From: an uncultured bacterium
GTDB lineage: Bacteria; Patescibacteriota; Minisyncoccia; UBA6257; 2-01-FULL-56-20
DNA: 34,664 bases
Assembly (NCBI GenBank): GCA_963844965.1
Contig: CAWJQC010000003.1
Coordinates: 1 to 34,664, forward strand
Direction: 5' to 3'
A model generated the notes under the pieces. That model made no database searches, was not told where the DNA came from, and was given only the letters and a program-made list of their open reading frames with translations. A program made the position numbers and the translations under genes. Within the stretch, counting starts at the first letter, position 1. Each line of letters starts with the position of its first letter. Of the stretch, positions 1 through 34,612 are shown piece after piece.

Positions 1-3000
1 CAACCTCAACGGCCAACGTTTACCGTCTGCGCATTGAGGTTACGAACACCCGCGCCACAACGACCCAGCCCAAACTCCAGCTTCAGTACCAATACAACGC
101 GACTTCCGGTTCCTGGACACTGGTCCCCACAACCTCCACTTTTTCCAGCCAACTTTTCCTTATCGCCTCCTCAACGAATTTTACGGATGGCGCTTCCACG
201 ACCGCCCAGCTTACCGCGGACGCCAATGCTTCCACTTCCGGCCAAATAAAGCAGTCCTCAAGCACGACGGGACTCGTCAATATAGGTTTTTCCTACAGCA
301 GTCCGACCTCTACCTGGACGGAAGTGGAATACGCCATCCGCGCTGGTCCGCAGGATGTCTACGGTAACAACGGAACCTACTACTTCCGGCTTCAGGAGGC
401 AACGAGCGCGAGCTTTGTTGCGTTTGACTCTTACAACGTCTACCCCGCGCTTTCGCTTTCCCTGCCGCAGCCGCGGCGGCCGATACTGAATTTTCCGGTG
501 GCCGCGACGACGACAGTTGACACCGCTTCCACGACATTCAAAATGACGGCGACTTTGACATCAACCTCTAACCAGTACGTGCAGTACAAGTGGGTTCTCT
601 ACCAGAACGAGGCGTGTACGGATGTTGTAACTTCAAGCACCGAGCCCTCAAGCCAGACCAACTGGAGCGGGCAGAACGCTTCCTCCGGTTCCAGTAACAG
701 CACGGCCTATTCCGCCACTTCGGCGACGGGAACAAGCGGCATTTTTCAGTACACCTTGACAGCCGGCACATACTGGTGGGGCGCGCAGGCCTATGACCCC
801 GACAACTCGGGCCTATATGGCTCAAGCACCCTCACGCGCGTGGACAACACGTGGGCGACGAACGCGGCCTCCCGTGCCCGCAACTGCGGCTCTTTACGGG
901 CATTCCGCGGTCGTCTACAACGGCTACATCTACACGACGGGAGGAGCCACATCAACCACCGGCGCTCCCGCCACAACTCCGGCTACTTCCTCCGTTTTCT
1001 ATGCACAGATAAGTTCCAACGGCGCGGTGGGAGCGTGGTCTACGAACTCCAATAAACTTCTGAGCGGTATCGCCAACCATTCCGCGGTCGCCTATAACGG
1101 ATACATCTATACGATTGGCGGCGCCACGACCACGGCCGCCAACGTTCCTGCCACCACTTCCGTTTTCTTCGCCAAGATAAATCAGGACGGGCACGCGTGG
1201 GAACGTGGACCCTGAATTCCAGTTCCTTGTCTAGCCCTCTTAACGAACTTTCCGCTGTCGCCTATAACGGTTATCTTTTATGCGATCGGCGCGTGCCACG
1301 AACACGGCCGCCGGCGCTCCCGCCACCACCTCTGTTTTCTACGCCCAAATAAACTCGAGCGGCACCGTAGGAAACGTGGACAATCGTATTCAAATTCCTT
1401 GCCGAGCCCGCTTATGTTCCATTCCGCCGTCGCCTATAACGGATACAGCTGCTACCACTGGCGTAATGATTACCACTTCCGGCGTCCCCACCACTTCCGT
1501 TTTCTTCGCCAAGATAAATCAGAGCGGCACGGTGGGAACATGGAGCTTGAACTCCAATTCCTTGCCGAGCCCGCTTATGCTGCACTCCGCGGTCGCCTAT
1601 AACGGATACATCTACACGGTGGGAGGAAGCAGCACAATTTCCAGCGCTATCTCCTAGAATTTTTTCTTATGCCCCGCTTCAGGCGAGTGGCACGGTCGGC
1701 TCCTGGAGCACCGCCGCCACCGCTCTTCCGAGCCCACTTGACGAACTCTCCGCGGTTGTCTCCAATGGTTATATATACACGACCGGAGGAAACCAGACCG
1801 ATAAGCGTCGCCACGACCACAGTTTTTACTCCCAGATAAACCAGCAGGGTATGACCGCCGCCGAGGGCTGGGTGACCCAGGGAGCGGTTTCAACCTCCAT
1901 TTCCCTGAACCAGGCCGTCTTCTCCAACAACTATCTTTATTCCATAGGCGGAACATCGGACGGTACGAACGGCACGACGACAGTGAGTTACTTCTCGGTC
2001 GGCTCAAACGGGACAACTACCGGCTCAGGGAAGACGACCGCGCTTCCCTCCGCCAGCGTCCAGCACCAGGCCTTCGCTTACACGAACTCCGGCGGCACTA
2101 CCATAATGTACGTCGTGGGCGGCGGAACTACGGTAAGCGCGGCGAGCACGCAGGTCGCGCAGTCAACCATCGCCTCAAACGGCACTCTCGGCTCCTGGAG
2201 CACGAGCGTCTCCGCCCAGCTTCCCGCAAACCGCAACAACGCTTTCGCGGGAGTTAACCCTAATACCGGCTATGTCTATGTCGTAGGCGGCGATGACACG
2301 AGCAATGCCACAACTTCCGTTCTCTACGGTCTCATAAGTTCCACGGGAACCATAGCCAACTGGAGCTCAACCCAGGTCTTCCGGCTGCCATGACAAAACA
2401 GAACGGAACCATCCTCAATAACGTCATCTATAACATAGGAGGCAGCACCGGCACCTCGCTTTCCTCCATCACGACCACCGTGAACATGGCCTATCTCAAC
2501 TCCGACGGCTCGGTCGCTTCCTGGACGACCGCCACGGCACTTCCCGCCCCCATCATCCAGCCGGACGTTGAGGGCTACAACAACTTCATTTACGTTACCG
2601 GCGGTTCGTCAACCGCCGCCTACGGAGGGGTGACCACGACCGTTCTCTATGCCCAACAATTAACTACTCCCACGGGCACGTACTGGTATCAGGGCACGGG
2701 CACTCTCTCAAGCTGGCTCACCGCCTCGTCAACGCCTCTTCCTCTCTACCACAGGGTTCCGCTATCGCGAACGGTTATCTCTACATGGTCGGCGGCAAGA
2801 GCACCGGAGGCACTGCTACTTCAACCGTAGAGGACATCGGACTATATACTTCATGCATCGCGTTGAATGTTTACCACAATTACACACCGACTATCTCCGC
2901 TGTGAAACTTAACAACAACAGCAATCTGAACTTGACCGTGAACGCCACGACGACCTTCACGATAAACTACACAGTGCAGGACCTGAACGGCTGCACGGAC

Positions 3001-4627
3001 ATTTATCACGTTACTTCCACCGCTTTCCGCACCGGCGCTTCTTCCACTTGTGAAACAGCCAATCCCACGACCGACAACCGCTGGTGCTACCTCGGAGTCG
3101 TCTCTTCCACTGGTTCCTGTGTGAGCGGCACGAATTACAACGAAACCGATACCGTTGCACTTTACTACTTCGCCGATTCCACGGGCAGCCAATCGCCGAC
3201 CTCAAGTTATCCCACGCAGGATTGGGTGGCTTACGCCGTGGCGGTGGACAAGGAGGGTGCGACATCCAGTGTCACTAACTCAACTTCCTCCAACGTGGAC
3301 GTTGTCGTCCTCACGGGCTTTAACGTTTCGCCCGCGTCCTCAACCTACGGCACGCTCCTCGTCGGCCAGAACACCAGCTCCACGAACCAAATCCACTATG
3401 TGAGCAACGCCGGCAATTCCTCAACAACCCTCGCCATATCCGGTACCGCCTTCAGGTGACGGTTTGGGACATTTCCTGGCAACGAGTTCCCAGCATTACG
3501 CGACTTCTTCCTTCACATTCGGCGGAGCGGAACAGCAGTTGAGTGATTCCTCGGCGACCGTGAGCGGTTTCAATACGATTCCGTCGCACATCAACGCGTC
3601 GCCAATCGTGCAGGCGTGGCAGACGAACCCAAATTCGCTGCCCGTTGCGCTTAATCATTACTCCGCCGTCGTTTACAACGGATATATTTATACGTTAGGT
3701 GGGGGTACCAATAATGTTTACTATGCTCCGATAAACTCCAATGGCACCATAGGCGTGTGGAAAACGAATCCGAACAATATGCCCGCTTCACTTATCTATA
3801 ACACGGCTGCCGTTGCCTATAACGGATACATATATTCAATCGGAGGCGAGGATAATGGAGTCGGCGTTAACACCTCCAGTGTTTTCTATGCTCAGATAAA
3901 CGCTTCAAGCACCGGCACGTGGTATAAAAATCCCAATTCCCTGCCTACGGCGCTGGAGTACAACTCGGCTGTCGTCTGGAATGGCTATATCTACAATCTC
4001 GGCGGCACCGCAAATACAGGCAACGGTAACGGAGGCACCACTACGGTTCTCTATGCCCAAATCAACACCTCCAGCACCGGCGCGTGGACGACAAATCCGA
4101 ATTCACTGCCGAGCGGACTGGCAGCTTTTGCTGCCGCCGCCTATAACGGCTATGTGTATGTTATCGGGGGATATGTTAATGGCAGCGGTCTCGCCTCCAC
4201 CGTCTATTATGCTCCGATAAACTCCGACCACACGCTTGGCGCCTTTCAGACGAACTCCAACTCTCTGCCGAGCGCACTTGATTTCCTCTCAGCCATCGCC
4301 TATAACGGATACCTCTATGTGATAGGAGGAGAAACCGGTTCCGGCGCTACCTCCTCGGTTTTCTACGCCGCGATAAATTCCACGGGGTCGGTCGGAGTAT
4401 GGCAAAATGCCGCCTCTCTTCCGGACTCAAACGAACAAAGCTTTGCCGTTGTCTCAAACGGCTATGCCTATCTCGTGGGCGGCAGTAACGGGACGAACAA
4501 CACCTCCAGCGTCTTCTATGTATCTCTGGACAACCGCCCGATCTACTGGGGCGCGACCGCCCCCTTGCGTTCCGCCGCCGGCAACTACCAGAGCACCGTA
4601 ACCTACACGGCGGTGTGGAGCCAATAA
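1..4627 (+). pseudogene. Kelch-like beta-propeller surface protein paralogue. It is 5'-truncated by the window edge and broken by at least 6 frameshifts. Its 3' part is rearranged, with a Kelch block inserted into the shared C-terminal domain.
   Basis: Frame 3 is open from nt 3 to 1055. ORFs then alternate frames (793-1215, 1280-1657, 1851-2393, 2390-2830, 2785-3459, 3464-4627). Each resembles consecutive segments of the paralogue at 5735-8999. Repeated 'SAVAYNGYIYTIGG...SVFYAQIN...GxW' units look like Kelch repeats. The segment 3464-4627 is intact and about 90% identical at nucleotide level to 6240-7140. Confidence 0.6.
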
Positions 4628-4662: not shown

Positions 4663-4716
4663 ATAAGACCTATAGGTCCTATACGACTTATACGACCTAT
4701 AGGTCTTATAGGTCTT
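4663..4716. repeat. Tandem 8-9 bp units TATAGGTC / TATACGAC / TATAAGAC (array 1 of 5 around the 4HB gene).
   Basis: Direct reading: ataagacc tataggtcc tatacgac ttatacgac ctataggtc ttataggtc. Confidence 0.8.
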
Positions 4717-5479: not shown

Positions 5480-5500
5480 CGTTTCGGTTTTGGTTTTTTT

Positions 5501-5561
5501 ATGCGTCCCATGCGTCTTATAGGTCCTATAAGACCTATACGTCTTATAAGTCGTATAGTAG
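5501..5561. repeat. Tandem 8-9 bp units (ATGCGTCC / TATAGGTC / TATAAGAC), array 4.
   Basis: Seen directly. Confidence 0.75.
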
Positions 5562-5606
5562 ACCCGCCGGTACAACTTATCAACATCTCCAAAAACAACG
5601 GAGCAG

Positions 5607-5615
5607 TGTTAGAAT
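5607..5615 (+). promoter_or_regulatory. TGTTAGAAT extended -10-like element (one of 4 identical copies in the window).
   Basis: Exact 9-mer TGnTAnAAT upstream of the 5735 gene. The same 9-mer occurs at 9270, 9568 and 27544, each upstream of a + strand gene. Confidence 0.35.
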
Positions 5616-5654
5616 TAGAGAAAGCGGGCATCGCGGCCCGAGGTTTTTGGTATT

Positions 5655-5720
5655 AAGTCCTATGCGTCCTATAAGTTCTATTGGCCTTATAAGTCCTATG
5701 CGTCCTATAAGACCTATAAA
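5655..5720. repeat. Tandem 8-9 bp units (TCCTATGCG / TCCTATAAG), array 5.
   Basis: Seen directly. Confidence 0.75.
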
Positions 5721-5734
5721 AAACCGTTCGCATT

Positions 5735-8700
5735 ATGAATAAGCACTTTGCCCTTGCGCTCATAATCATTGCCTCCGCGATAGTCGTTGCCGGCGGCGTT
5801 GTCGGCGTCGTTTTGGGCGACAGCACGTCGCAGATGAACCTCGGGGTTTTGAACATAACGCCGCGGCGGCCGATACTGAATTATCCTGCGCCGAACTCAA
5901 CTATTTCGTACGCGGGCAGCACTTTTCAGATAACGGCGACGAAGCCCACGGGCGGCGGCAGTTACGTGCAGTACAAACAAGTGATTTATCAGAACGAGGC
6001 CTGCACGCAGGTCGTGCAGACAAACGACGAAACGGCGTCGCAAACCGGCTGGAGCGGCGAGAACGCTTCTGCGAGCGAGGCCTATGCCGCCGGAAACGCA
6101 ACCGGTTCTGCCGGTACCTTCACTTTACAGACGAACTTGGCGACCAATACCACTTACTGGTGGGGCGCGCAGGCCTACGACCCCGACACTGCGGGAAGCT
6201 GGGGCACGAGCACGCTCACGCGAGTGGACAACGCGTGGACTACGAACGCGAATTCCCTGCCGACCACACTTTCAATGTTCTATGCCGTTACTTACAATGG
6301 ATATATTTATGCGTTAGGAGGGTGCGCTAGCACTGTTTATTACGCTCCGATAAATTCCGGCGGCACTGTGGGTATATGGACGACGAATCCGAACAATATG
6401 CCTGCTTCACTTGGCAGTGACGTAGCCGCTGTCGCCTATAACGGATATATATATACAATCGGAGGGGGAGTTTGTGGCCCCAGTGTCAACACCACTACCA
6501 TTTTCTATGCCCAGATTAACGGCTCAAGCACTGGCCCGTGGCTCACAAACCCCAATCCGCTGCCCACAGCGCTTGAGCACAACTCAGCTGTCGTCTGGAA
6601 TGGCTATATCTACAATCTTGGTGGAAGCACATCAGTCGGTAACTGTGCCAATGGCACCACCACCGTCCTCTACGCCCAAATCAACGGCTCCAGCACCGGG
6701 GCGTGGCAGACAAATCCGAATTCGTTGCCCACCACCGTAACGTGCGCAGCCGCTGCCGTCTATAATGGCTACATATATGTGATTGGGGATGATGCCATAT
6801 ATTATTCTACTTCCAGTGTCTTCTACGCCCCGATAAACTCCGACCACACGGTTGGCGCCTTTCAGACAAACCCCAATTCCCTGCCGAGTGCGATTGGGGA
6901 CAACTTCGCCGTCGCCTATAACGGCTATATATATTTGATTGGGGGGGAGAATGCCGCTAGTGTTGCTACCTCCACCGTCCTCTACGCCGCGATAAATTCC
7001 ACAGGGTCGGTCGGTGTATGGCAAAATGCCGCCTCTCTTCCGAGCTTAAACAGATACGGCTCTGCCGTTGTCTCAAACGGCTATGCCTATCTTATGGGCG
7101 GCAATGACGGGACGAATGACACTTCCACTGTTCTCTATTCCCAAATCAACCAGCTCGGTTCCACCGCCGCCGAGGGCTGGATAAACAACTCCGCTCTCGC
7201 AAGTTCAATCTATCTGAACGATGCCCTTGCCTATAACGGCTACATTTACTCAACAGGAGGAACATCGGACGGCACGAACGGAACAACAACCGTGAATTAC
7301 GCCATGCTGAACTCCAACGGCACCCTGGGCAACTGGCAAACGACGGCAGCTCTTCCCGCGAACACCGTCCAGCACGGAGCATTCGCCTATACGAACTCAG
7401 GCGGCACGACCCTCCTCTATACAATAGGCGGCGGCACCACGGTAGGAGCTGCAGGAAACAAGGTGAACCAGGCGACGGTCAACACGAACGGCACCTTGGG
7501 AACCTGGAGCGCTGCCGTTTCGGCAAACCTTCCGGCAAACTACGAGAACAGCTTCACGGGAGCGGCGAACGGCTACGCCTATCTCGTGGGAGGGGATAAC
7601 GGCACGAATGCCACAAGCGCCGTCCTCTACGGCCTCATAAGCTCCACGGGTACTATCAAGAACTGGTCTTCAACGAACCCTCTTCCCGCTGCCGTAACGA
7701 ATCAGGGAGGCATAATCCTGAACAACGTCATTTACGACATCGGCGGCAGCACGGATATCGCGGCTGCGAACATCACGACTACCGTTAACTACGCTCCCAT
7801 CAATTCCAACGGTTCTGTCGCGAGCTGGACAGTGAGCACATCTCTGCCTGCTCCCATCATCCAGCCGGACGTTGAGACCTGGAACAACTTCATCTATGTC
7901 ATCGGCGGCTCGTCAACCGTGGCCTACGGAGGAGCGACGACAACGGTTCTCTACGCCGTTCCAGCCGGCAACCAAAGTAGCTCCGGCTTCATAGTCCAGT
8001 CCAGCGGCACCTTGTCGTCATGGCTTGCCGCCACCCCTCTTCCTTCTCCTCTTTACGAGGAGGGTTCGGCTGTAGCAGACGGCTATCTCTATACCGTGGG
8101 AGGCAAGAACTCTTCGGGAGCCACTACGACCGTTCAAAACACCGGACTTTATACTTCCTGCATAGCGTTCAATTCGGTGACGAACTACGCGCCGTCGGTT
8201 TCCGCGGTTTCCTTGAACGGCGGCAACGCGCTTACCCTGACGGCCAACGCCACGACGAGCTTCAGCATAAATTATTCCGTGACCGACCCGAACGGCTGTT
8301 CCAATATCGCGAGCGTAACCTCCACCGCCTTCCGCACGGGAGTCGCCGGTGCTTGCGCCACGGCGAATCCCGCGACCGACAACCGAAATTGCTACCTGAG
8401 TGTCGTCAACTCCACGAGTTCCTGCGCGGGCACGAACTACAACGAAACCGATACTGTCGCTCTTTATTATTTCGCCGATTCAACGGGTATCACTACCTCA
8501 AGTTACCCAACCCAGCACTGGGAGGCCTACGCCACGGTCTTGAGCAATTCGGGCTTGACCGCGAGCGCCACTTCTTCCAACGTGGACGTGAACGTCCTCT
8601 CCGCCATAAACGTGACGGAGCCACTTCCAGTGTCATTAATTATGGTGCTTTATCGCAAAACGCGAATACCGGTTTGTGAATCAGACAACGACGGTGCAGA

Positions 8701-8999
8701 ACGCCGGAAATTCTTCCACGACACTTCAGATTTATGCGTCGCAGGTTTTGACTTCCGGCACGAGCACAATACCGGCGGCCTACCAGCACTATGCGACTTC
8801 TTCCTTCACCTTTGGCGGCAACGAGCAGCAGCTTACGACAAGCACGAACCCCGCCTTCGTTCCCGGATTTGTACTCACCGTTCCCACGAGCACGGCTTCG
8901 GTCCAAAAATTGACATACTGGGGCGCTGGCACGCCGGCCGGCCAGGCGGGCGGCAGTTATCAGGGCACGACTATGTTCGCGGCAGGGTTTTCACAATAG
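5735..8999 (+). CDS. Large secreted surface protein. It has an N-terminal signal anchor, an Ig/FN-like module, about 20 Kelch-like propeller repeats and the shared roughly 240-aa C-terminal domain. It needs two -1 frame changes near 8617 and 8677.
   Basis: ORF 5735-9058 runs into out-of-frame low-complexity text after 'SAINVT'. The conserved C-terminal sequence continues in the other two frames as 'GATSSVINYGALSQNANTGL' and then in ORF 8676-8999 as 'NQTTTVQNAGNSSTTLQIY...WGAGTPAGQAGGSYQGTTMFAAGFSQ*'. These match the C-termini of the 12570 and 16027 genes. Confidence 0.65.
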
Positions 9000-9002
9000 T
9001 TA

Positions 9003-9236
9003 CAAAGTCAAAATTCAAAAGGCAAAAGTCAAAAGTTAAAGTAAAAAATCAAAAATGAAATACTTTTTACATTTGACATGCAATTTTGACCTTTGAGTTT
9101 TAACTTTTGACATTATCTGAGCTGACTTTTGATTTTTGCCTTTTGACCCCGAGCCCTGCGTACTGAAACAAGAACGCGACGACTTTTGACATTTGACCTA
9201 TACTTTTGACTTTTGAATTTTGCCTTTTGACCTTAA
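9003..9236. repeat. Inverted arrays of the 8-mer GTCAAAAG / CTTTTGAC. There are about 6 units on the + arm (9003-9060) and about 10 on the - arm (9066-9236).
   Basis: Seen directly. A large imperfect palindrome centred near 9062, with no gene inside. Confidence 0.75.
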
Positions 9237-9361
9237 TTACCCTTGTGTATAAAAAAAACAGGTGAGTGGTGTTAGAATTATAAAAAGGGGAGGGCGTTCC
9301 CTCGGTTTTTGTTAGAAAGAGTTCGGCGGTTCCATGTTCTATGTTACATGCTTCATGTTAT

Positions 9362-9466
9362 ATGAATAAGAGAATTACATTCAGTTTGCTGATTTTTGCG
9401 GTAATTATGATTGGCGGTTTTTTGTTCGCGCCGAAGGCGCAGGCGGCGATTTCATTCGTGATATAA
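9362..9466 (+). CDS. Possible 34-aa peptide that is essentially a signal peptide (MNKRITFSLLIFAVIMIGGFLFAPKAQAAISFVI).
   Basis: ATG followed by a hydrophobic core and an AQA motif. It could be an N-terminal remnant of a surface-protein gene. Confidence 0.2.
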   Translation: MNKRITFSLLIFAVIMIGGFLFAPKAQAAISFVI

Positions 9467-9674: not shown

Positions 9675-10349
9675 GTGAACAAAACAACGGGCAGAATAAA
9701 AGAAATTGCGCGGAACAAAAAGGCAAAAATCGGGCTCTTAATCTGCGCCGTGATTGCGGCAATATTATCCGGCTACCTCATAGTCAAAGCTCTCTCGTTT
9801 GTTGATAATTTCACCACCACCAATTACGTGTCAAGCGTGTGGCACACGCAAGTGGCGACTTCTTCGGGCGTTGCCGAATTGCAGGCGAAAACTTGCAATA
9901 CTATTTCCACCTCAACCTGGTTTTGCTCCGCCACTTCCACCTCCATATGTTTGAACGACCTTGGCGACGGCGACTACATTATAGTTGCCCAAGCCGATAG
10001 CGGCCACCTGGCGTGGAAAAATGACGATACTGCCTGCTCTCGGCCGCAATGCGAGCAAGACGGCCCAGTGGACGGAAACAATCTGGTTGCCGACAACACG
10101 GTAAATTTCAGCGATTACGCGGCGCGGGCTGCCTGCCAAGCGATTGGCGGCCGTTTGCCGACGCGAAACGAATTGGGGTGCTTGTACAACAACTCATCAA
10201 CGTTCGGCGGTAACTTTGCTGCGGACTTCTACTGGTCTTCTGCCGAGGACGATGCCGCGGACGCCTACTACGTGTATTTCGCGAATGGCGGCGTGAGCAG
10301 CTACGGCAAGACCTACGCCTACTACGTCCGCTGCGTCCAAGGGTGGTAA
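9675..10349 (+). CDS. DGR target protein. It has an N-terminal membrane anchor, a Cys-rich region and a C-terminal DUF1566/FGE-like (C-type-lectin fold) domain that carries the variable repeat.
   Basis: GTG start. The C-terminus reads '...LPTRNELGCLYNN...FAADFYWSSAEDDAADAYYVYFANGGVSSYGKTYAYYVRCVQGW*', the classic DUF1566-type ending. Its last 128 nt align to the TR with A-only mismatches. Confidence 0.8.
   Translation: MNKTTGRIKEIARNKKAKIGLLICAVIAAILSGYLIVKALSFVDNFTTTNYVSSVWHTQVATSSGVAELQAKTCNTISTSTWFCSATSTSICLNDLGDGDYIIVAQADSGHLAWKNDDTACSRPQCEQDGPVDGNNLVADNTVNFSDYAARAACQAIGGRLPTRNELGCLYNNSSTFGGNFAADFYWSSAEDDAADAYYVYFANGGVSSYGKTYAYYVRCVQGW
10215..10342 (+). other. DGR variable repeat (VR).
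   Basis: 128 nt, colinear with the TR at 11061-11188 with no indels. There are 14 mismatches, all at positions where the TR has A (TR AAC codons read as TTC, GAC, TAC, AGC or GGC in the VR). A shared GC-rich 3' end 'cgtccgctgcgtccaagg' could be the IMH (initiation of mutagenic homing) element. Confidence 0.85.
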
Positions 10350-10462: not shown

Positions 10463-10825
10463 ATGAAAATAAATTCATATACAGACCTGATTGTTTGGCA
10501 AAAAGCAGTTGATTTAGTTGTGGAAGTTTATAATCTGACTGAGAAATTTTCCAAAAGCGAACTTTTTGGTCTAACTTCACAAATGAGACGGGCAGCAGTT
10601 TCTATTCCGTCTAATATTGCCGAGGGCAGGAGGAGAGGAACAAGAAAAGATTTTTGCCATTTTTTGGTTATCGCTTTTGGTTCAGGAGGAGAATTGGAAA
10701 CCCAAATAATAATTGCCAAGAAACTAAACTTTATAAAAATAGGCGAGTATTCAAAGGTCGATTTGTTATTAGACGAGGTTATGCGCATATTGAACGTCAT
10801 GATTCATAACCTGCAGGTTCATTAG
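10463..10825 (+). CDS. Four-helix-bundle protein (PF05635 / '23S rRNA IVS protein' family).
   Basis: 'DLIVWQKAVDLVVEVYNLTEKFSKSELFGLTSQMRRAAVSIPSNIAEG...ELETQIIIAKKL' is a near-consensus member. Confidence 0.8.
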   Translation: MKINSYTDLIVWQKAVDLVVEVYNLTEKFSKSELFGLTSQMRRAAVSIPSNIAEGRRRGTRKDFCHFLVIAFGSGGELETQIIIAKKLNFIKIGEYSKVDLLLDEVMRILNVMIHNLQVH

Positions 10826-10885: not shown

Positions 10886-11060
10886 CGGCCGGAGTCTTTA
10901 ATCACGCAGCGGCTCAAGCCGCGCGGGTTAAAGAGAGTTTGCTGATATAAACCACGATTTCGCCGCCCCGTTAGGGAGCTGTGAATGTTGGGCTAAACTA
11001 ACAGGGCATTGTTGGCAAGCAGCTGTTTTACGGCTGCTGAGACAGTCCAGCGCGAAATAT

Positions 11061-11188
11061 TTTGCTGCGGACAACTACTGGTCTTCTGCCGAGAACGATG
11101 CCGCGAACGCCTACAACGTGAATTTCACGAATGGCGGCGTGAACAACAACAACAAGACCAACGCCAACTACGTCCGCTGCGTCCAAGG
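11061..11188 (+). other. DGR template repeat (TR).
   Basis: AAC-rich (reads as AADNYWSSAENDAANAYNVNFTNGGVNNNNKTNANYVRCVQG*). Every difference from the VR is at a TR adenine. Confidence 0.85.
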
Positions 11189-11227
11189 TTGATTTATAAA
11201 AGCGAAAATCGCCGATATTTCAAAAAA

Positions 11228-11584
11228 ATGCGCAACACCGAGCGATTGCCTCTTTATCACAAGACATACGGACTAATCAAGCATTTATACGGCGTGATCA
11301 GGAGCTTTCCCAAGGAATATAAATATTCTATGGGGAGCGAAATCATGAATCTTTCGTGGAAATGCCTTGACCTTATTATTGAAGCGAACGCCTACCCCAA
11401 TGCTCAAAAGAGCGTGAAAGTCGCCGAATTAAGCGCGGCATACGATAAATTAAAAATGCGGCTGCGGATGAGCCAGGAAATCAACCTGACATCAGCCGGC
11501 CAATTCGCTCATCTTGAAGAAAATTACATGCTGGAAATAGGGAAAATGATTGGCGGCTGGAAAAAATGGGCGGGGGCAGAATAA
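11228..11584 (+). CDS. avd: Avd (DGR accessory variability determinant).
   Basis: About 118 aa, placed between TR and RT. It matches the bAvd pattern (Y..L..L..V.R.FPK.YKY..G..I....W.CLDLII.A...K.......LS...D.L...LR......I......H.E...LEIGKMIGGWKK) and has the C-terminal GGW motif. Confidence 0.7.
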   Translation: MRNTERLPLYHKTYGLIKHLYGVIRSFPKEYKYSMGSEIMNLSWKCLDLIIEANAYPNAQKSVKVAELSAAYDKLKMRLRMSQEINLTSAGQFAHLEENYMLEIGKMIGGWKKWAGAE

Positions 11585-11620
11585 ATTTCTAATTTCTAAT
11601 TGACCTAATTGATTTAAATA
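11584..11620. repeat. Left inverted-repeat arm (aatttctaatttctaattgacctaatt...) of a MITE-like element.
   Basis: Its reverse complement recurs at 11863-11900. The same family, without cargo, is at 28797-28887. Confidence 0.65.
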
Positions 11621-11833
11621 ATGTTCAATTCCAAAATCCCAAACAAAGATAAATATGATTTGGAAGAAAGAACCGCAAAATTCGGCGAAGAAGTTATCAG
11701 ATTTTGCCAAGAATTGCCCCAAAATGAAATAACCAGACCGATAATAAATCAGCTGATAAAATGCGCAAAATTATGGGTTGAAGCCAAAGAGTTAAATCTG
11801 ATTTTCAACGCAATCAACAATAAATTGAAATGA
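11621..11833 (+). CDS. Truncated 4HB-family gene fragment (N-terminal two-thirds only).
   Basis: 'YDLEERTAKFGEEVIRFCQELPQNEITRPIINQLI' matches the 'FDLEERL..FA..II.L...LPK......I..QL.RS' N-terminus of 4HB proteins. It lacks the C-terminal helices. Confidence 0.4.
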   Translation: MFNSKIPNKDKYDLEERTAKFGEEVIRFCQELPQNEITRPIINQLIKCAKLWVEAKELNLIFNAINNKLK

Positions 11834-11862
11834 CGCTTTTGGTTATTGGGATTTAGGATTTA

Positions 11863-11900
11863 TTTAGGTCAATTAGAGCAATTAGAATAATTAGAAATTA
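11863..11900. repeat. Right inverted-repeat arm (tttaggtcaattagagcaattagaataattagaaatta).
   Basis: Its reverse complement matches the left arm at 11584-11620. Confidence 0.65.
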
Positions 11901-11903
11901 CCC

Positions 11904-13040
11904 ATGGCCATCTTCACCTATGAAAACCTGTATCGCGCGTATCTTGACTGCCGGCGCAATAAAAGAAAAACGATTAACGCGCTGAAATTTGAGATTGATT
12001 TAGAAAAGAATTTGTCTTTACTGCTTGAAGAATTAACGAGCCGTCGATACCAGCCAGGCCGCTCGATTTGTTCGTGGTCAAATATCCCCAGCCGCGGGAA
12101 ATATTCGCGGCTGATTTCCGCGACAGGATAGTGCACCATCTGCTGGTCGGCCAAATTCTGGCCGAAAGCGAAAAAAGCTTTTTTTACAACAGTTTCGCTT
12201 GCCGCAAAGGAAAAGGTACGCACAAGGCGGTCGGACTTTTGAGAAGATACCTGAAAAGCGCTTCCAGAAGCGGAAAAGAGAAAATATTTTACCTGCAATT
12301 GGATATCGGAAGTTTTTTCGTGTCAATCCGGCACCGCGTTTTATTTTCCATTTTCAGCGAATTTGTCGGCAAATTGAACCGGACCGAAGAATGGAAACAA
12401 GAAATTTTATGGCTGGCTGAAAAAATCATTTTTTACGAACCAGCCAAAAATTGCGAAATAAGAGGCGATAAGAGCTTGCTCGCGCTGATACCGCCGCACA
12501 AGTCGCTTTTTAACGCGCCGCCAGAACGGACTGCCGATTGGCAATTACACCTCGCAATTTTTCGCCAATATGTATCTGAACCGATTGGATTATTTCACCA
12601 AGCAGACGCTTAAGGAAAAATTTTATATCAGATATGTTGACGACATTGTGATTTTAGGAAAAAGCGCCGGCGCGCTTAAAGGTCTGATTCCCGAAATTAA
12701 CAGGTTTTTGAAAAAAGAATTGGAGATTGAACTGAATCTTGACAAGATCAAGTTCAAAAACGTTTCGGCGGGCATAGATTTTCTGGGCTATTTTGTGAAG
12801 CCGGATTACACGCTTGTCCGCCGCCGGGTGGTTAAGAATTGCAAGGAAAAAATCCGCCCTGCCCCCGAAGTTTCGAAAAAATTGGTCTCGCAAGCCAATT
12901 CTTATCTGGGGCATTTTATCCACGCCGCGAGCTACGGATTGAGAAAAATGATTTCAGAGAGGTTAATCAAAGCGGACAATTCTATACATTTTAGCAATGG
13001 CTATAAATCGATATTCGCAATAATTGGCGGGCAAAGAAAA
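11904..13040 (+). CDS. DGR-type reverse transcriptase. It is frameshifted (frame 0, then +2 near 12065, then back to 0 near 12520) and read through in frame into the downstream surface-protein gene.
   Basis: It carries these DGR-RT motifs:
- 'YQPGRSI / FVVKYPQPREIFAADFRDRIVHHLL'
- 'SFACRKGKGTHKAV'
- 'IFYLQLDIGSFF'
- 'GLPIGNYTSQFFANMYLNRLDYF' (found in frame 0)
- 'YIRYVDDIVILG' (the YxDD box)
- C-terminal 'SQANSYLGHFIHAASYGLRKMI'. Confidence 0.8.
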
Positions 13041-14975
13041 ATAATCAAAACGGCGGTTGCCGCGGCAGTTCTGCTCGCGGGCTTTTCGTTTGCTCATTCC
13101 GCCTCCGCCGCTTATTTCAAGACCGGCTCTTTGGTTTCCGCTAACCTCTTGGACGGCTTGACCAACGTCGGCGCGATTACCCAATTTAACGCCACAACTT
13201 CCATCGCGGCGGGCACTTCGGTAAGCGTCCAATTTTCCCGCAATAAACTTACCTGGTACAGCGCCTCCGGCACGGCGTTCGCCACAAGTTCGCTTTCGGA
13301 CGGCGCGAACAGCATTGACTTGTCGGCGTTGGGGTGGACCGGCCCGATTTTTTATTACAAGCTGCAATTCGCGACGAATGATTCAAGCATCACTCCGACT
13401 GTATCGGGCGTGGCCGTGAATTACAATTACAGCTCCGGACCGACGTACGAGTATTTCGGGCAAGGGTCTTTGGTTTCCGCCAATGTGCTTGACGGTCATA
13501 CGGACGTCGGCGCAATTACCGGATTTTCCGCTTCAACTACCGTGCCGGCCAGCACGACAATAACAGTCCAGTTTTCGCGCGACAAATTGGTTTGGTACAA
13601 CCATTCCGGCGTGGCGTACGCCGAAGACAGCTTGTCCAACGGCTCCAATGTCGTTAATTTGTCCGCTTTGAATTGGACCGGTCCGCTGATTTATTATAAA
13701 TTGCATTTTACCACAAGCGATGTCGGCCAGACGGCGGCTATTTCATCGGCCGAGATTGATTATTCAGCCGGTTCCGGCTCGGTATATTTCAAGCAAGGAA
13801 CATTGGTTTCAACAAATCTTTTGGCTGGCGGAGGGACGCTTAGCGGAAACGAATTGTTCGGCTATAACATTTCTTCTTTGCCTTCTGGAACAACGGTTCA
13901 GGTCCAATTCAGCACCAGTAGCGCCAATTGGTTCAGTTCCACTGGCACCGCTTGGGCGTGGGACACCTTGTCCAGCGGCAGCCACCTTACCGCTTCAACC
14001 GCGATTAACTTGTCCGCGCTTGGCTGGACCGGCGCCAGTTTTTATTACAAATTAGAATTCACAACGACTGATGCCGGCACAACTCCGACAGTCGCTCAAA
14101 TATCGCTCTTTACGCCGGGAGCGCTGCCCATCGTTACGGTTCTGATGACGGTCGTCTCAAGCAGCGCTCCCATCGTATCCGCCGTATCGGTGAACGGCGG
14201 CAATTCCATCACGCTCACGCCCGCGACAACGACCCCGATCAGCGTCAATTTCACGGTTACGGATTATTCCGGCTGTTCAAACGTTTTCACGAGCGGCAAC
14301 GTTACGACCACGCTTTACCGCATGGGCGTCGGGAGTTCGTGCGTGGCGGACAACCGCAACTGCTACAGGACTTCCTCGCAAACCAACAATTGCTCGGGCA
14401 GCGGTGCCAACGCCACGGCAACTTTGAATCTTTACTATTTCGCCGATTCCACCGGCAGCCAATCGCCGACCTCAAGTTATCCATCCGACCACTGGCAGGC
14501 CTATGTGCAGGCGCTGGACGGGACGGCGAACGCCACGGGCACCGCCACGTCAACCGTGAACGACGTTAATGTCTTGACGGCCATCACCGTTACAACTTCT
14601 TCCATCAACTACGGCACGATGTCGCCGAATGCGACGACCTCGGCCGCGAGCGACCAGCTCGCGACCGTGCAGAACGTCGGCAATTCGTCCACGACTTTGA
14701 AAATTTCCGGCACGGCGCTCGTAATGTCCTCGCCTTACGACGCGTTCGCAACGTCCAGCCAGCATTACGCCACATCCACTTTCCAGTGGAACGCCAGCGG
14801 CCCGGAGCAGCAACTTCAGCAAACACAAACAACGGTTCCGGGATTTTCTCTGACTACCCCCACCTCCACGAGTGCCGTGAGCGGTAACACTTATCGGGGC
14901 GTGCAAATTCCCGGCAGCGCGCAAAGCGGCGTGCACGTGGGGATGATAACGTTCAGCTCAAATTGGAGCCAATAA
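13041..14975 (+). CDS. Secreted surface protein with three tandem repeats of about 100 aa and the shared C-terminal domain. The start is uncertain because there is no canonical in-frame start codon.
   Basis: A signal-peptide-like 'KIIKTAVAAAVLLAGFSFAHSASA' is followed by three units of 'YFKxGSLVSxNLLDG...VQFS..KL.WY..SG.A.....LS.GSN...LSAL.WTGP..YYKL.FTT.D'. The tail is 'VSAVSVNGGN...DNRNCY...LYYFADSTGSQSPTSSYP...TVQNVGNSSTTL...QHYATSTF...WSQ*'. Confidence 0.55.
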   Translation: MIKTAVAAAVLLAGFSFAHSASAAYFKTGSLVSANLLDGLTNVGAITQFNATTSIAAGTSVSVQFSRNKLTWYSASGTAFATSSLSDGANSIDLSALGWTGPIFYYKLQFATNDSSITPTVSGVAVNYNYSSGPTYEYFGQGSLVSANVLDGHTDVGAITGFSASTTVPASTTITVQFSRDKLVWYNHSGVAYAEDSLSNGSNVVNLSALNWTGPLIYYKLHFTTSDVGQTAAISSAEIDYSAGSGSVYFKQGTLVSTNLLAGGGTLSGNELFGYNISSLPSGTTVQVQFSTSSANWFSSTGTAWAWDTLSSGSHLTASTAINLSALGWTGASFYYKLEFTTTDAGTTPTVAQISLFTPGALPIVTVLMTVVSSSAPIVSAVSVNGGNSITLTPATTTPISVNFTVTDYSGCSNVFTSGNVTTTLYRMGVGSSCVADNRNCYRTSSQTNNCSGSGANATATLNLYYFADSTGSQSPTSSYPSDHWQAYVQALDGTANATGTATSTVNDVNVLTAITVTTSSINYGTMSPNATTSAASDQLATVQNVGNSSTTLKISGTALVMSSPYDAFATSSQHYATSTFQWNASGPEQQLQQTQTTVPGFSLTTPTSTSAVSGNTYRGVQIPGSAQSGVHVGMITFSSNWSQ

Positions 14976-14983
14976 TCTTAAAA

Positions 14984-15036
14984 TTAACGACATCGTAAGT
15001 CATTAATTAATAATTAACGATGTCGTAAGTCGTTAA
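14984..15036. repeat. Two REP-like palindromes (TTAACGACATCGTAAGTCATTAA and TTAACGATGTCGTAAGTCGTTAA) between convergent genes.
   Basis: Seen directly. They are the same family as the hairpin at 4631-4657 and the palindrome at 15752-15774. Confidence 0.75.
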
Positions 15037-15722
15037 TCGAGCGAAACGTTTTTGACCTCTTCTATTTCAATATCCTTAAGCCACTGTTTTATATTTTTTT
15101 CGTATTCCGCGGGGCCGCCGAAAAATTTCATAAGAAATTCTCTATTAGTAACCGACGGAAAATTTTTCTTGCCGAGATAATCAAGGTGGCTTGACCAGCG
15201 GTAATTATCCAAGAATTTCATCGCTTCTCTATGGTTCTTGATCTCGCGTTCGCGCCATTCCGGCGCCGCGAGGTCCAGCGGGTTCACGTGTATGTAATAG
15301 GGGATATGGTTGAAATGCGATTCGTTCTTTATCACCATGGATTTGTACCTGCCTTCAAATAACGTCCCCTTCCTTTCGTATTTCTGATTGAAATATTTTG
15401 CGTATCCCACGTTGATTTTTTTCATAAACGCCGTGATAGCTCCATCCGTGCGCGGGGAAAGAAGGAGATGATAGTGGTTGGGCATTAGACAAAACGCGTA
15501 TATATCAACCAAGAGTTTTCTTGGTTCTCTTGGCTTTGATTTGCCGCCAATATAACGACTTGCGACATCGTTAGATTGGTTGAATCTATAAAAAGCGTTA
15601 TTTACCCTGTTTTGGTCGTTAAATTCAAAAAGATCGTGGATAAACCTCAAATAATCCTGTTTATCAAGGAAGATTTTGCGTTTATCCACGCCCCTGTTCA
15701 GTGTGTGGTAGACATCAGCCAT
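15033..15722 (-). CDS. REP-associated tyrosine transposase (RAYT), a Y1 HUH transposase of the IS200 type.
   Basis: HuH motif 'CLMPNHYHLLL', then 'GAITAFMKKINVGYAKYFNQKYERKGTLFEGRYKS', then 'YYIHVNPL'. REP-like palindromes flank it on both sides. Confidence 0.7.
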   Translation of the reverse strand: MADVYHTLNRGVDKRKIFLDKQDYLRFIHDLFEFNDQNRVNNAFYRFNQSNDVASRYIGGKSKPREPRKLLVDIYAFCLMPNHYHLLLSPRTDGAITAFMKKINVGYAKYFNQKYERKGTLFEGRYKSMVIKNESHFNHIPYYIHVNPLDLAAPEWREREIKNHREAMKFLDNYRWSSHLDYLGKKNFPSVTNREFLMKFFGGPAEYEKNIKQWLKDIEIEEVKNVSLD

Positions 15723-15868: not shown

Positions 15869-16956
15869 ATGAACAAAAGCAACTCAGGTCTGACTCAAAT
15901 CGGCAAGGTTTTGCTCGTAGGGGTCGTCATCCTCGGGGTTTTTGGCTTTTTCTCAACTTTTCTCGGAGGCATCGGCGGTTTTCCGAGCAGGCAATCGGGT
16001 TCACCGGGGGAAACTGGATTCTCGGTTTGGGTTTCTTCGGCATTAATGTGGCTAACGCCACGGACACAACCAATACTCCCACAAGCACGGTCACCGTCGG
16101 AAACTCCGCCCCGACAGTTAGCGGCATAAAACTGAACAACAACAGCGATATCATTCTCACCGTCAACGCCACGACGGCGGTCGTCCTGAACTACACCGTA
16201 GCCGACAACAACGGCTGCTCCGACATCAACACGAACGCAATGACCTCCACATTGTTCGTGGCGAGCTCCTCGCCGTTCGTCGTTTGTAATTCCACATATC
16301 CGACGACAAGCAGCGTCTATTGCTACCTGTACTCTTCGCGAACAACGAGCAGCTGCAGCGGAAGTTCCTACAACGTCTCCGACACTTTCTGGCTTTATTA
16401 TTACGCCGCCGGCACGGGCAACGCCTCGGCGACCGACGGGTCATCCAGCTTTTGGGACGCCCACATAGTTGCGGTTGACAAGTCCTTAGCAACAGGCGAT
16501 GGGACCTCTTCCAACCAAAACGTCACCACTCTCATCGGGCTCACCGTCACGACCTCCACCATCAACTATGGCACCATGGCGGGCGGCGCCACCTCAAGCG
16601 TCGCGAACATCCTGACCCAAATCGCCACCACGACCAACGCCGGCAACGCGACGACATCCCTCAAACTTTCATCGCTGATAGATCTGTACAGCAGCGGCAC
16701 CGGCCAAGTCATCTCTTCAACCTACCAGCACTACTCCACATCGTCCTTCACTTACGGCGGCAACGAGCAGCAGCTTCAGGGGTCGTCAACGCCGCAGCTC
16801 GTCACCGGCTTAACGCTTTGGGTTGTGACGAGCACCGCGAGCGGCGCTTCAAGCAGCAAGGCGACCTGGTGGGGACTTCAGGCTCCCAGCGTGGCAACCG
16901 GCACTTACAACGGCCTCGTTACTTTCTCGTCGGTATGGACGGGAACGCAACAATAA
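15869..16956 (+). CDS. Small secreted protein with a long signal anchor and the shared C-terminal domain. It has one frameshift in a G5 homopolymer at 16006-16010.
   Basis: ORF 15869-16129 and ORF 16027-16956 join cleanly if one G is added: '...SGSPGGNWILGLGFFGINVANA|TDTTNTPTSTVTVGNSAPTVSGIKLNNNSD...'. The tail is 'QHYSTSSFTYGGNEQQL...VTFSSVWTGTQQ*'. Confidence 0.6.
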
Positions 16957-19393: not shown

Positions 19394-19807
19394 ATGAAAA
19401 AAATTATAGAAGATCTAATTTATAAAGATTTGTCTTTCAAAATACATGGCGCGGCTATTGAAGTGCGTAGGGATTTTGGAGCAGGGCATAAAGAGAAGTT
19501 ATACCAACAGGCTCTTGCCGCAGAATTAGACAGGCGCGGTATAAAATTTGAAAGAGAGAAAGCCATCAAAATTTATTCGCCAAAAGATGGCAAGTTTGTC
19601 GGCCTCTATCGGCCAGATTTTGTCGTGGAAAACAAGATAATTGTTGAAACAAAAGTAGAAACATTTGTGAGACAGGATGAAATAAAAAGAATATATGATT
19701 ATTTGAGGAATAGTGAGTACGAGCTTGCTTATCTGGTCAATTTTGCTTCGCCGCAACTATACGTAAGAAGGATAGTTTATACAAATAAATATAAATCAAA
19801 AATCGGT
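19394..19807 (+). CDS. GxxExxY protein (PD-(D/E)XK nuclease superfamily). It has no stop codon of its own and runs in frame into the next gene.
   Basis: 'DLIYKDLSFKIHGAAIEVRRDFGAGHKEKLYQQAL...YRPDFVVENKIIVETKV...YLVNF' contains G-HK-E-KL-Y, the family signature. It is related to the ORF at 24870-25313. Confidence 0.6.
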
Positions 19808-20695
19808 ATGAAAATTGCAATACTATTCTTGGCGTCTATTGGCTTATTATTAGCGGATATTAGCGGCGTACGGGCCGCTTCGCAGTCGCTTTATTTCTCG
19901 GCGCCTTCGGGAACCATCGCCGTCGGAAGCGAATTTCCGGTCAAAATACTGATCGATTCCGACCAGCCGCTTAACGCCTATGTCGTGACTTTTTCCTACG
20001 ATCCGGGCGTGCTCACGATTGTGGGTTTTGACAACGGCAAGTCAATCATAGATGTTTGGCAGGGGCAGCCGGCCGTTTCCGAAAACGGTTCCGTCGGCTT
20101 GCGCGGCGGCAGCGTCACCCCGTTCAGCGGGAAAGGCGGTAACATCATTACCGTCAATTTCCGGGCGGTGGGAGAAGGAGAGCCGATGCTCGCGTTCGGC
20201 AACTCATCGTTTTATATGGCGAACGGCAAAGGCACGAAAGTTGTTCCGCAAACCGCCGATCTGAAGTTTCAAATTCTTTCGGCCGGCGCCGTCACTTCAA
20301 CACTTCCGGTTTACGAGGAGGCATCGGATATCGCGCCGCCGACCATAAAATATCTGTCTCTCGTCCAGGATCCGTTCAACAGCGGGCAAAAACTTCTGAG
20401 CTTTATGGTTTCGGATCCCGACTCCGGTATCAGGGAGACTCTGGTGCGTACGCGTTCACTCCTCCTCTGGAGCGACTGGATTCCGGCGCAAAACCCGACC
20501 GCGATTCCATTATCCGCCTGGTCCATCGGCTTCAGAGCCATTGATAACAGAGGAAATATTTCGGAAAGAACGCTTTACAACTTTTCGGCGTTTTTGCGTC
20601 CCGAAGCGTTGGGCGTCGCGGCGCTCTTCATTATATTTTTAGTTATCATCGGCTTTATTATAGTAAAGATTAAAAAAGGTCGTTCCGTATCATAG
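19808..20695 (+). CDS. Secreted protein with a cohesin-like N-terminal domain and a C-terminal TM anchor.
   Basis: ATG at 19808 is followed by the signal peptide 'MKIAILFLASIGLLLADISGVRA'. The motif 'AYVVTFSYDPGVLTIVGF' resembles the cohesin 'F.YDP.VL' core. The C-terminus 'LGVAALFIIFLVIIGFIIVKIKK' is a membrane anchor. Confidence 0.45.
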   Translation: MKIAILFLASIGLLLADISGVRAASQSLYFSAPSGTIAVGSEFPVKILIDSDQPLNAYVVTFSYDPGVLTIVGFDNGKSIIDVWQGQPAVSENGSVGLRGGSVTPFSGKGGNIITVNFRAVGEGEPMLAFGNSSFYMANGKGTKVVPQTADLKFQILSAGAVTSTLPVYEEASDIAPPTIKYLSLVQDPFNSGQKLLSFMVSDPDSGIRETLVRTRSLLLWSDWIPAQNPTAIPLSAWSIGFRAIDNRGNISERTLYNFSAFLRPEALGVAALFIIFLVIIGFIIVKIKKGRSVS

Positions 20696-28792: not shown

Positions 28793-28796
28793 ATGA

Positions 28797-28887
28797 CTAA
28801 TTTCTAATTGACCTAATTACTCTAATGTTTTTAGAGATTTTGAGGTTGGGATTTATTTGGAAATTAGATATTAGAAATTAGGAATTT
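28797..28887. repeat. Cargo-less copy of the MITE-like inverted-repeat element (ctaatttctaattgacctaatt ... ggaaattagatattagaaattagg).
   Basis: Same arms as at 11584-11620 and 11863-11900. It fills the ctpA-rplI intergenic region. Confidence 0.6.
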
Positions 28888-28892
28888 AAACA

Positions 28893-29339: not shown

Positions 29340-29353
29340 CAGAGCGAAGCACG

Positions 29354-29626: not shown

Positions 29627-29747
29627 TTTTGCCCAAGAGCGAAGCGATTGGCTGCAAAAATGAGCATCCCGCCGGAGCTTTTAGCGGAGGCGGGGAGCCA
29701 TTCCTTCGCGTATTTATTTCTATCAATTTTATGCTAAGATATGTGTA

Positions 29748-30467: not shown

Positions 30468-30498
30468 TTAATAATTTTTAATAGGCCTAATCAACGTG

Positions 30499-30639: not shown

Positions 30640-30666
30640 AATTCCGGTCCGGCGCTACAAGCTGTG

Positions 30667-32276: not shown

Positions 32277-32281
32277 ATTAG

Positions 32282-33573: not shown

Positions 33574-34352
33574 TTAAGCCGCAATCTTCTCGGCAAACAC
33601 GGACGGCGGCATCTTGAGGGCGGAGTGGATCCGCGTGTGGTTGTACTGCCACAAGGTGCTGTAGATCTCCGCCACGAGCTCGCCGAAGGTCCCGAACCGG
33701 TTGGGATCACCGAGGTCAATCTTGAACTTGTCATAGAACGATTCCTGGTAGCCGTTTTCCCATCGGGCACCGGGCCGCGACCGCGAGATCGTGATGCCAC
33801 AGTCCCCCAGTGTATCGGTGAACGCTCGTGCCTTGTACTCGCTGCCGTTGTCCGAATGGAAGATGACCGGATGCGGATGGTGGAAAAGCGCGTTGGCCAG
33901 GGTCTGTATCGTGAGGGGCGATCCTTTCCGCAACGCCACATGGACGCCCATCAATCGTCTCGTGAAAAGATCGAGTATCGTGGACACGTACACTTTCTTG
34001 CCGCGATACAGGATCCGTGAAATCGGTTGCCCAGACGTGGTTCGCGTACGAGGGCATGATGGCAAGTAAGAGGTTCGGAAAGGCCCGCGATGCCTTTGAT
34101 TTCCGGTATTTCCTGCCTCGCCTCCGGTACGGCCTTATGCCGAAGATTCGCATGACGCGCTGCGCTCGCGGACGGCTCACGCCCAGAGCTTGTCCCAACG
34201 CCGGGAACCGTATGCCGGATGGCGCTGCAATTCTTCTTCGTTGCGGACCCTGAGCGCCCAATCTTTCTTGTCCTGCCGTGATACGTAGTAGAGCGATGCC
34301 CGCGGACGCCCATGGCCCGCGCCATGGCGGACTTGTTCCGCTTTTCCGTCAA
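33574..34352 (-). pseudogene. IS3-family transposase OrfB (DDE integrase core). Beyond the programmed -1 site it is split across three frames by two extra frameshifts.
   Basis: The 33951 frame reads 'AMARAMGVRGHRSTTYHGRTRK'. The 33731 frame reads 'LGVSRPRAQRVMRIFGIRPYRRRGRKYRKSK...PNLL...NHVWATDFT'. The 33574 frame reads 'YVSTILDLFTRR...HSDNGSEYKARAF...GITISRSRPGARWENGYQESFY...YNHTRIHSAL'. Confidence 0.65.
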
Positions 34353-34612
34353 TTCTTTTTTTGGGCCTGGGAGAGCTTCACGGTGAGCTCGCCCACCACT
34401 TCAAACAGCTCCCTGTTCTGCTTCTGGAGACGGCTGAACTCGCCCCAGGAAGGGATGCCGATGCTCCTGCGCCTAGCCAATTGTAGATGGTGGACTCGTG
34501 CAAACCGTGGTCCTTCACCGCCTGCGCTACGGGGACTCCTTCTTCCTTCACCCCGGCGGAGGATGTCCGCCTTCACTTCCTTCGCAATCCGATGCCCTTT
34601 TTTGTTGCTCAT
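34349..34612 (-). CDS. IS3-family transposase OrfA (HTH / leucine zipper).
   Basis: '...SWGEFSRLQKQNRELFEVVGELTVKLSQAQKKN', followed by the AAAAAAG frameshift site. Confidence 0.7.
   Translation of the reverse strand: MSNKKGHRIAKEVKADILRRGEGRRSPRSAGGEGPRFARVHHLQLARRRSIGIPSWGEFSRLQKQNRELFEVVGELTVKLSQAQKKN

Follow-up and report, generated by a model that had tools for sequence, protein, structure and literature searches.

Split reverse transcriptase of a patescibacterial diversity-generating retroelement looks like part of a contig-wide rash of indels rather than a fusion or a recoded gene

Introduction

Among diversity-generating retroelements (DGRs), the prototype is that of the Bordetella phage BPP-1, with its Brt, Avd, template repeat (TR) and Mtd, and the DGRs of the Candidate Phyla Radiation (CPR)/Patescibacteria were reportedly described by Paul et al. 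in 2017 (Nat Microbiol). The subject of this work is a DGR on contig CAWJQC010000003.1 of an uncultured patescibacterium (assembly GCA_963844965.1); the complete 34,664-bp contig was analysed and is called the window below. The cassette is a standard CPR (Zambryskibacteria-like) DGR, composed of an Lcl_C target gene with a variable repeat (VR), a gene of the 23S rRNA intervening-sequence protein (IVP) family, a TR, bAvd and a reverse transcriptase (RT), and as an element it is of a known kind. Its RT gene, as assembled, is broken by two frameshifts and runs without a stop codon into a downstream gene for a surface protein. An original prediction, made from the sequence letters, offered three readings of this arrangement and chose none of them: a decaying DGR with a dead RT, sequencing indels, and a genuine RT–surface-protein fusion or translational coupling. 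We find that the RT gene looks like part of a contig-wide rash of indels, due to assembly error or to very recent damage, rather than a fusion or a product of recoding.

Results

Three-frame structure of the reverse transcriptase

The RT motifs had been predicted to lie in frames 0, +2 and 0 again. Three-frame translation and alignment to nine homologues bear this out and refine the segments to the following positions, all on the + strand.

11904..12070, +: RT segment 1 (frame 0), from the ATG at 11904 to ...YQPGRSIC
12069..12072, +: indel site 1, one base lost from TGY-TTY, the codons of a Cys-Phe pair that is invariant in homologues
12071..12524, +: RT segment 2 (frame 2), FVVKYPQPREIFAADFRDRIVHH ... 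SLFNAPP, read as bearing the N-terminal catalytic motifs
12523..12526, +: indel site 2, two bases missing immediately 5' of the GLPIGN motif
12525..13034, +: RT segment 3 (frame 0), NGLPIGNYTSQFFANMYL, YVDD, the thumb and ...YKSIFAIIGGQ

DNA alignment with three related loci (L001, L007 and L065) places a 1-nt gap after 12070, where TGY TTY is reduced to TGTTC, and a 2-nt gap after 12524, both in the window sequence only, and the length at the second site is identical across all nine homologues in the protein alignment. The frameshifts are thus compensating, as had been proposed: because the gaps of 1 and 2 nt sum to -3 nt, the frame returns to 0. In the assembled sequence, frame 0 meets a stop at 12129-12131, ahead of the catalytic motifs, and is then open from 12489 to 14975, passing through ...YKSIFAIIGGQRK and IIKTAVAAAVLLAGFSFAHSASA↓AYFKTG (the arrow marks signal-peptide cleavage here and below). 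The ATG at 12570, inside this open stretch, is the internal Met of the FFANMYL motif.

When the protein is joined across both indel junctions (stitched RT), it gives one continuous match to Pfam RVT_1 (PF00078) over residues 67-297 (E=4.4e-22) and is colinear with its homologues, which are 345-419 aa long (typically 385 aa) and to which it is 50-74% identical; the closest of them are 74%, 65% and 68% identical, and RT homologues adjoin bAvd and Lcl_C genes. The stitched frames contain no stop codon, and YVDD, IGNYTSQFF, IGNYTSQFFANMYL and RYVDD can all be read from the alignment. None of the 113 columns that are invariant in the nine homologues is altered in the stitched RT, the single flagged column being a placeholder residue, and when the intact homologues are left out one by one they show 2-10 altered invariant columns each. 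Set against what defines a pseudogene, the RT therefore has the frameshifts and lacks the signs of relaxed constraint, that is, nonsense codons and loss of invariant residues. Of 6853 RT homologues, the best 120 are all encoded in single open reading frames (ORFs) of 345-419 aa. Protein searches returned no near-identical copy of the stitched RT or of the frame-2 ORF except the window's own gene call, and the stitched RT found nothing above 65% identity among genome contigs and nothing above 55% among metagenome contigs.

The restored frame speaks for a quite different and highly improbable explanation, namely that the assembled sequence is meaningful and the RT is made by programmed frameshifting at both sites. 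Transposases of the IS3 family use a programmed -1 frameshift from OrfA to OrfB, and the IS3-like element of this contig probably has the usual -1 shift. The RT sites differ from this system, as they have neither a slippery X XXY YYZ heptamer nor a long homopolymer (TCG ATT TGT TCG at site 1, CCA GAA CGG ACT at site 2) and they are not conserved, the homologues being single ORFs and L001, L007 and L065 being ungapped at both sites. In addition, motifs essential to an RT fall in the out-of-frame stretch, and frame 0 meets its stop at 12131.

Junction of the reverse transcriptase and surface-protein genes

Three features, all on the + strand, lie at and beyond the end of the RT.

13015..13046, +: putatively damaged junction of RT stop and surface-gene start, A-rich GCAATAATTGGCGGGCAAAGAAAAATAATC; the stop and start of relatives are -4 to +7 nt apart
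13038..13109, +: predicted Sec-type signal peptide without a start codon, KIIK / TAVAAAVLLAGFSF / AHSASA↓A
13110..14975, +: mature surface protein, three ~113-aa domains (YFxxGxLVSxNLL...) and a C-terminal domain common to the paralogues A, B and D of this contig

The predicted read-through was found as described, frame 0 passing from ...YKSIFAIIGGQRK into KIIKTAVAAAVLLAGFSFAHSASA↓AYFKTGSLVSANLL... and up to 14975 without a stop. As had also been pointed out, the interval from the RT C-terminus to the signal peptide offers only ATA, ATT and ATC as in-frame near-start codons; no in-frame ATG, GTG or TTG was found near the signal peptide, the nearest upstream in-frame ATG (12948) falls within the conserved RT C-terminus, and the TTG at 13024 is in frame 1, which is not the frame of the surface protein. 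Judged by its sequence, the surface protein carries an N-terminal Sec signal peptide in which n, h and c regions and an AxA site can be recognised, and which lines up with the signal peptides of homologues and their points of cleavage (...ALA↓ADYY, ...ARA↓DYY, ...AYA↓DYY). These homologues are 37-52% identical across the three ~113-aa domains and begin with their own Met and a signal peptide cleaved at the aligned AxA site. The claim that the surface protein is not the VR carrier of this element also holds: the TR (11061-11191), matched against the whole contig, has a single partner at 10215-10345, with no second match or other copy anywhere.

Among the relatives, four loci with related RTs (53-68% identical) have enough downstream flank for comparison, and three of them carry the pair of RT and surface gene: L001 (CAIOTC010000012, bin-2248), L007/L002 (Ca. 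Zambryskibacteria MFD03726.bin.2.15) and L069 (CAZKWY010000005). Their junctions are as follows.

L001: RT ...FNSIILKPLQ, stop TGA; the stop overlaps the start (CAATGAAAATC, ATGA); surface start MKIANYKLKLFLISAFFF...AYA↓DYYSTGSLMSTNLL
L007: RT stop TAA; 6 nt; surface start GTG
L069: RT stop TAG; 7 nt; surface start ATG

The order avd, RT, then a secreted three-domain surface protein is thus shared by these loci and the window, with an Lcl_C target seen in L001 and L069 and, upstream of the RT in L001, an orthologue of the 224-aa target. The surface genes span 8727-12058 in L001, 9246-10476 in L007 and 7006-9303 in L069, whose product is 37% identical to the window protein over the three ~113-aa domains and aligned from the signal peptide onward; L070 and L071 have an unrelated large gene at this position. 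Orthologous loci, which the original prediction had proposed to inspect, thus hold two genes in different frames (L001, L007 and L069), which shows that the RT and the surface gene are normally separate. Unlike the window, L001 and L069 encode the RT in one uninterrupted ORF (384-385 aa) that is closed by a stop codon, and their surface gene opens with an ATG that lies in a different frame.

L007, a Nanopore metagenome-assembled genome (MAG), resembles the window in that both its RT and its signal peptide are frameshifted, the first ahead of the RT C-terminus and the second within a T-run of the signal peptide that follows, and on the same contig as the RT its lepA is split in two ORFs. It belongs to the Microflora Danica long-read set, whose MAGs are Nanopore-only and received one round of Medaka to lower indel errors (PMC12313526). 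As a separate observation, two in-frame TGA codons in the L007 RT flank a perfect 9-bp hairpin, GTGTCAAAG-ATGCC-CTTTGACAC; the TGA codons and the two frameshifts of L007 were noted at 9030-9060 and 9150-9320.

A gene for a secreted 'YYxxGxLxSxNLL' three-domain protein at -4 to +7 nt from a DGR RT, found in three of the four related loci and in the window, is a conserved, VR-less neighbour of the RT that is probably co-translated with it. The P0019/P0148 and P0116/P0137 proteins are further RT/surface-homologue pairs, the members of which may share a contig, since the longest contigs of each pair agree in length. The likeness of the C-terminal tail of P0001 (...RRQISPLAVGGG) to QRKIIKTAVAAA in the read-through of the window was set aside as a coincidence, the L065 DNA downstream being a TR and then avd, in another gene order.

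In relatives the RT tail past the (Y/F)xSI motif is 4-8 residues long and, given this length and the spacing of the relatives' junctions, the stop of the RT and the start of the surface gene should both fall inside 13015-13046. Two repairs would restore them. In one, a change of CAAAGAAAAAT to CAATGAAAAT, as in L001, would give an RT ending ...IIGGQ-TGA (378 aa) and overlapping ATG-AAA-ATA-ATC, the start of MKIIKTAV.... In the other, the frame-1 TAA at 13021 and the TTG immediately behind it at 13024 would be used, and one extra A in the A5 run at 13037-13041 would give MAGKEKIIKTAV.... The choice between the two, and hence the exact original junction sequence, is a matter of inference. By these comparisons, the RT and the surface gene probably form a coupled pair, and it is the punctuation between them that has been damaged here. 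The suggested translational coupling accordingly stands in another sense, as the stop and start of relatives overlap or abut (ATGA in L001); a genuine fusion is not supported.

The junction also bears on the other form of the explanation by a meaningful sequence, in which the 801-aa ORF (ATG 12570 to 14975) is a real chimera that joins the C-terminal part of the RT to the surface protein and might, for instance, be held in the membrane through its internal signal sequence. The two genes form a conserved and closely spaced pair in L001, L007 and L069, and in a scan of 11500-15200, where promoter and terminator counts were at shuffle expectation, neither signal stands out between the two genes, both of which would suit a chimera. 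Against it, the relatives keep the genes in different frames, and a search of 5.8 billion proteins with the 801-aa ORF returned none that spans both parts, the matches covering at most 58% of it and falling on either the RT part or the surface part. No RT-surface fusion or frameshifted homologue turned up in searches of these 5.8 billion proteins. We know of no precedent for a signal peptide that lies internally, preceded by 150 aa of RT thumb.

Frameshifts along the contig

The RT is not special within this contig, since three surface-protein genes (A, B and D) and an IS3-like transposase are frameshifted as well.

1..4627, +: Kelch-type surface gene A (frame changes within 471-4531), at least 7 frame changes and a mosaic C-terminus, from the blastx/tblastn frame chain and the three-frame view
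8615..8685, +: part of surface gene B (5735-9005), two -1 frameshifts at ~8620 and ~8680, 68 nt apart
15869..16956, +: surface gene D, signal/transmembrane N-terminus in frame 2 and body in frame 1, with a probable frameshift near 16000
33575..34612, -: IS3-like transposase at the contig end, at least 5 unprogrammed frameshifts, from the three-frame view

Contig-wide there are at least 18 frameshifts, with at least 15 elsewhere in addition to 2 in the RT and at least 1 at the RT/surface junction. Stitching the RT, genes A, B and D and the transposase did not require reading through a single nonsense codon, and in the stitched transposase the Pfam scores of HTH_23, HTH_Tnp_1 and rve rise above threshold or to full length. 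Frameshifts are densest in the first 3.5 kb (~2 per kb) and in the last 1.1 kb (~4.5 per kb), and none was found in ~16 kb of other genes. Full-length single-frame domain matches were obtained for several of these, among them SOD, Fmt, Def, LigT, a CtpA-type S41 protease, L9, a 3'-5' exonuclease and cohesin-domain proteins. If events were spread evenly over the ~29 kb of assessable coding sequence, the probability that all 18 fall within the 13 kb of surface, RT and insertion sequence (IS) genes would be ~10^-6.

The frames of gene A were traced by homology-based chains, a path of minimum frame switches being uninformative because GC-rich genes have long chance open frames. The C-terminal domain of this gene stops after ...ATVSGFN (~3580), ~1 kb of Kelch repeats intervenes, and the domain resumes at ...IYWGATAPL...WSQ*; the Kelch insert is 67% identical in protein sequence to residues 164-472 of gene B. 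Either the gene was truly rearranged or paralogues were wrongly joined in the assembly. P0132 (JGI, 56 aa), a cluster-mate of gene B, proved a false lead, its DNA having no similarity to the window. Between genes A and B, at 5006-5726, repeats with a 9-nt period (ATCAGTCCT / ATCCGTCCT and variants) occur in four clusters, the minus strand of which reads as (G-x-I)n triplets within ORF 4706-5575.

In the IS3-like element (33575-34612, -) the usual OrfA/OrfB -1 site near ...QAQKK/KEL... is probably kept, and the DDE residues look intact on reading. A small PD-(D/E)XK_3 (PF13366) gene at 19394-20695 runs without a stop into a cohesin-domain protein with its own ATG and signal peptide (...RRIVYTNKYKSKIG-MKIAILFLASIGLLLA...), which makes this region a second missing-stop read-through in the contig.

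The retroelement cassette

The remaining parts of the DGR precede the RT on the same strand.

9675..10349, +: DGR target gene, 224 aa, signal/transmembrane N-terminus and Lcl_C / C-type-lectin-like C-terminus (Pfam PF07603 Lcl_C, E=7e-10)
10215..10345, +: VR, at the 3' end of the target gene, 89% identity with the TR
10463..10825, +: four-helix-bundle gene of the IVP family (PF05635, E=8.8e-39), between target and TR
11061..11191, +: TR, 131 nt, pairs with the VR
11207..11584, +: accessory variability determinant, bAvd (PF22296, E=2.8e-16)
11621..11833, +: 70-aa remnant, truncated and four-helix-bundle-like, a likeness judged by eye from the translation and without a Pfam match

The VR is made up of the final 131 nt ahead of the stop in 9675-10349. 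Over these 131 nt, all 14 core mismatches between TR and VR are at TR adenines, and one further T/G difference lies at the 3' edge. What characterises a DGR is therefore present, with an RT of the DGR clade, an adenine-only TR/VR pair, a VR in an Lcl_C target (a fold assignment that comes from Pfam) and Avd, except for an intact translatable RT gene, the RT ORF being in three pieces as assembled. Because the core mismatches are all at TR adenines and bAvd, the TR and the target gene are all intact, the DGR looks active and, apart from the RT damage, looks functional at the sequence level.

Upstream of the target gene, at 9062-9235, a 54-nt TTGAC-rich direct repeat occurs in two copies (81% identical, 120 nt apart). 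Just 5' of the target gene, a 41-aa ORF (9341-9466) resembles a signal peptide alone (MNKRITFSLLIFAVIMIGGFLFAPKAQA...) and may be another truncated surface-gene remnant.

Discussion

We consider it probable, although well short of certain, that the RT indels and the damaged junction are consensus or assembly errors. Errors of this kind, such as those of low-coverage or strain-mixed assembly regions, would be absent from the living genome: the junction punctuation would have been erased by one or two minor alterations within 20 A-rich nt (inside 13015-13046), and in the cell the RT would be one protein of ~378 aa, with the surface protein made separately as a Sec substrate whose translation is coupled to it. 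An artefact is favoured because the damage consists of indels only, with no invariant column changed out of 113 and no in-frame stops, because indels are dense at the contig ends and tightly clustered locally in the presence of an otherwise pristine DGR, and because the related Nanopore MAG L007 shows similar defects, including its split lepA. The pattern is like that of indel errors in long-read or low-coverage assemblies, in which clusters of 1-2-nt indels split ORFs into conserved pieces and are enriched at contig ends and in repeated or strain-variable genes. Of the three readings first offered, sequencing indels is hence the best supported; a dying DGR with a dead RT fits poorly with the pristine TR/VR and the 0/113 invariant columns lost, and a genuine fusion is not supported, the protein searches having returned no fused homologue and three relatives having separate genes in different frames.

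Several observations weigh against an artefact. Two Logan contigs of run ERR10755942 match 10897-11885 and 27705-32321 at 100% (5.6 kb), so that the consensus is accurate at least over those 5.6 kb; these contigs span no frameshift site, and protein, genome-contig, metagenome-contig and Logan searches found no independent assembly over any such site. Together with the ~16 kb free of frameshifts, the 5.6 kb of identity to an independent assembly differs from what long-read errors would give. Only genes that are dispensable (surface paralogues, RT and IS) are frameshifted, as purifying selection on real mutations predicts, and random error is not expected to spare housekeeping genes, unless it tracks the low coverage or strain heterogeneity of accessory regions. 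Lastly, a 2-nt deletion in a non-repetitive context, as at site 2, is not a classic homopolymer error.

The same points give some room to a less likely explanation, which we hold possible but doubtful: the indels are real and very recent, and a dispensable variable island of DGR RT, surface paralogues and IS is being inactivated by small indels, leaving the RT dead and the surface gene without its start, silent or poorly expressed. It would account for frameshifts found only in losable genes (surface paralogues, RT, transposase) and not in SOD, Fmt, Def, CtpA, L9, LigT or the exonuclease, and for Logan contigs that are 100% identical to the contig wherever they overlap it. The large mosaic rearrangement of gene A is beyond base-calling error, a degree of real decay is suggested by the 70-aa four-helix-bundle remnant that precedes the RT, and short RT fragments on long contigs are numerous in public MAGs. 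However, neutral decay with 3-4 indels in 1.15 kb should also have brought substitutions at conserved sites and stops, whereas none of the 113 columns is changed and the stitched genes contain no nonsense codon, and the TR/VR core has no non-adenine difference. Nor would the mutational spectra of bacterial pseudogenes predict at least 18 frameshifts accompanied by 0 nonsense mutations, and a density of ~2 per kb or more at both contig ends is typical of poor consensus.

A chimera produced by a T-to-A change at an ancestral ATGA overlap and one inserted A, giving the in-frame 801-aa fusion, or an RT obtained from two recoding events, would, if true, tie a DGR RT physically or translationally to a surface protein, but the sites, the homologues and the protein searches described above make either route exceedingly unlikely.

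The frameshifts and the fusion are best treated as not being a real feature. The case calls for caution in general, as split RT ORFs and apparent fusions in MAG contigs need a contig-wide check for frameshifts and a check of orthologous loci before they are read biologically. Apart from this, the recurrence of a tight pair of RT and secreted three-domain protein (L001, L007, L069 and the window) suggests a co-expressed, DGR-linked surface protein that is not the VR carrier.

Compared with the DGRs of CPR bacteria and with the BPP-1 prototype, the locus has an RT motif of the IGxxxSQ type, bAvd, a 131-nt adenine-only TR/VR pair and a VR at the 3' end of a C-type-lectin-like (Lcl_C) target in common with them. 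It differs in the order of its parts (target, IVP gene, TR, avd, RT), with the IVP gene inserted, and in an RT that is assembled in three pieces and runs unpunctuated into a surface gene which is not its target.

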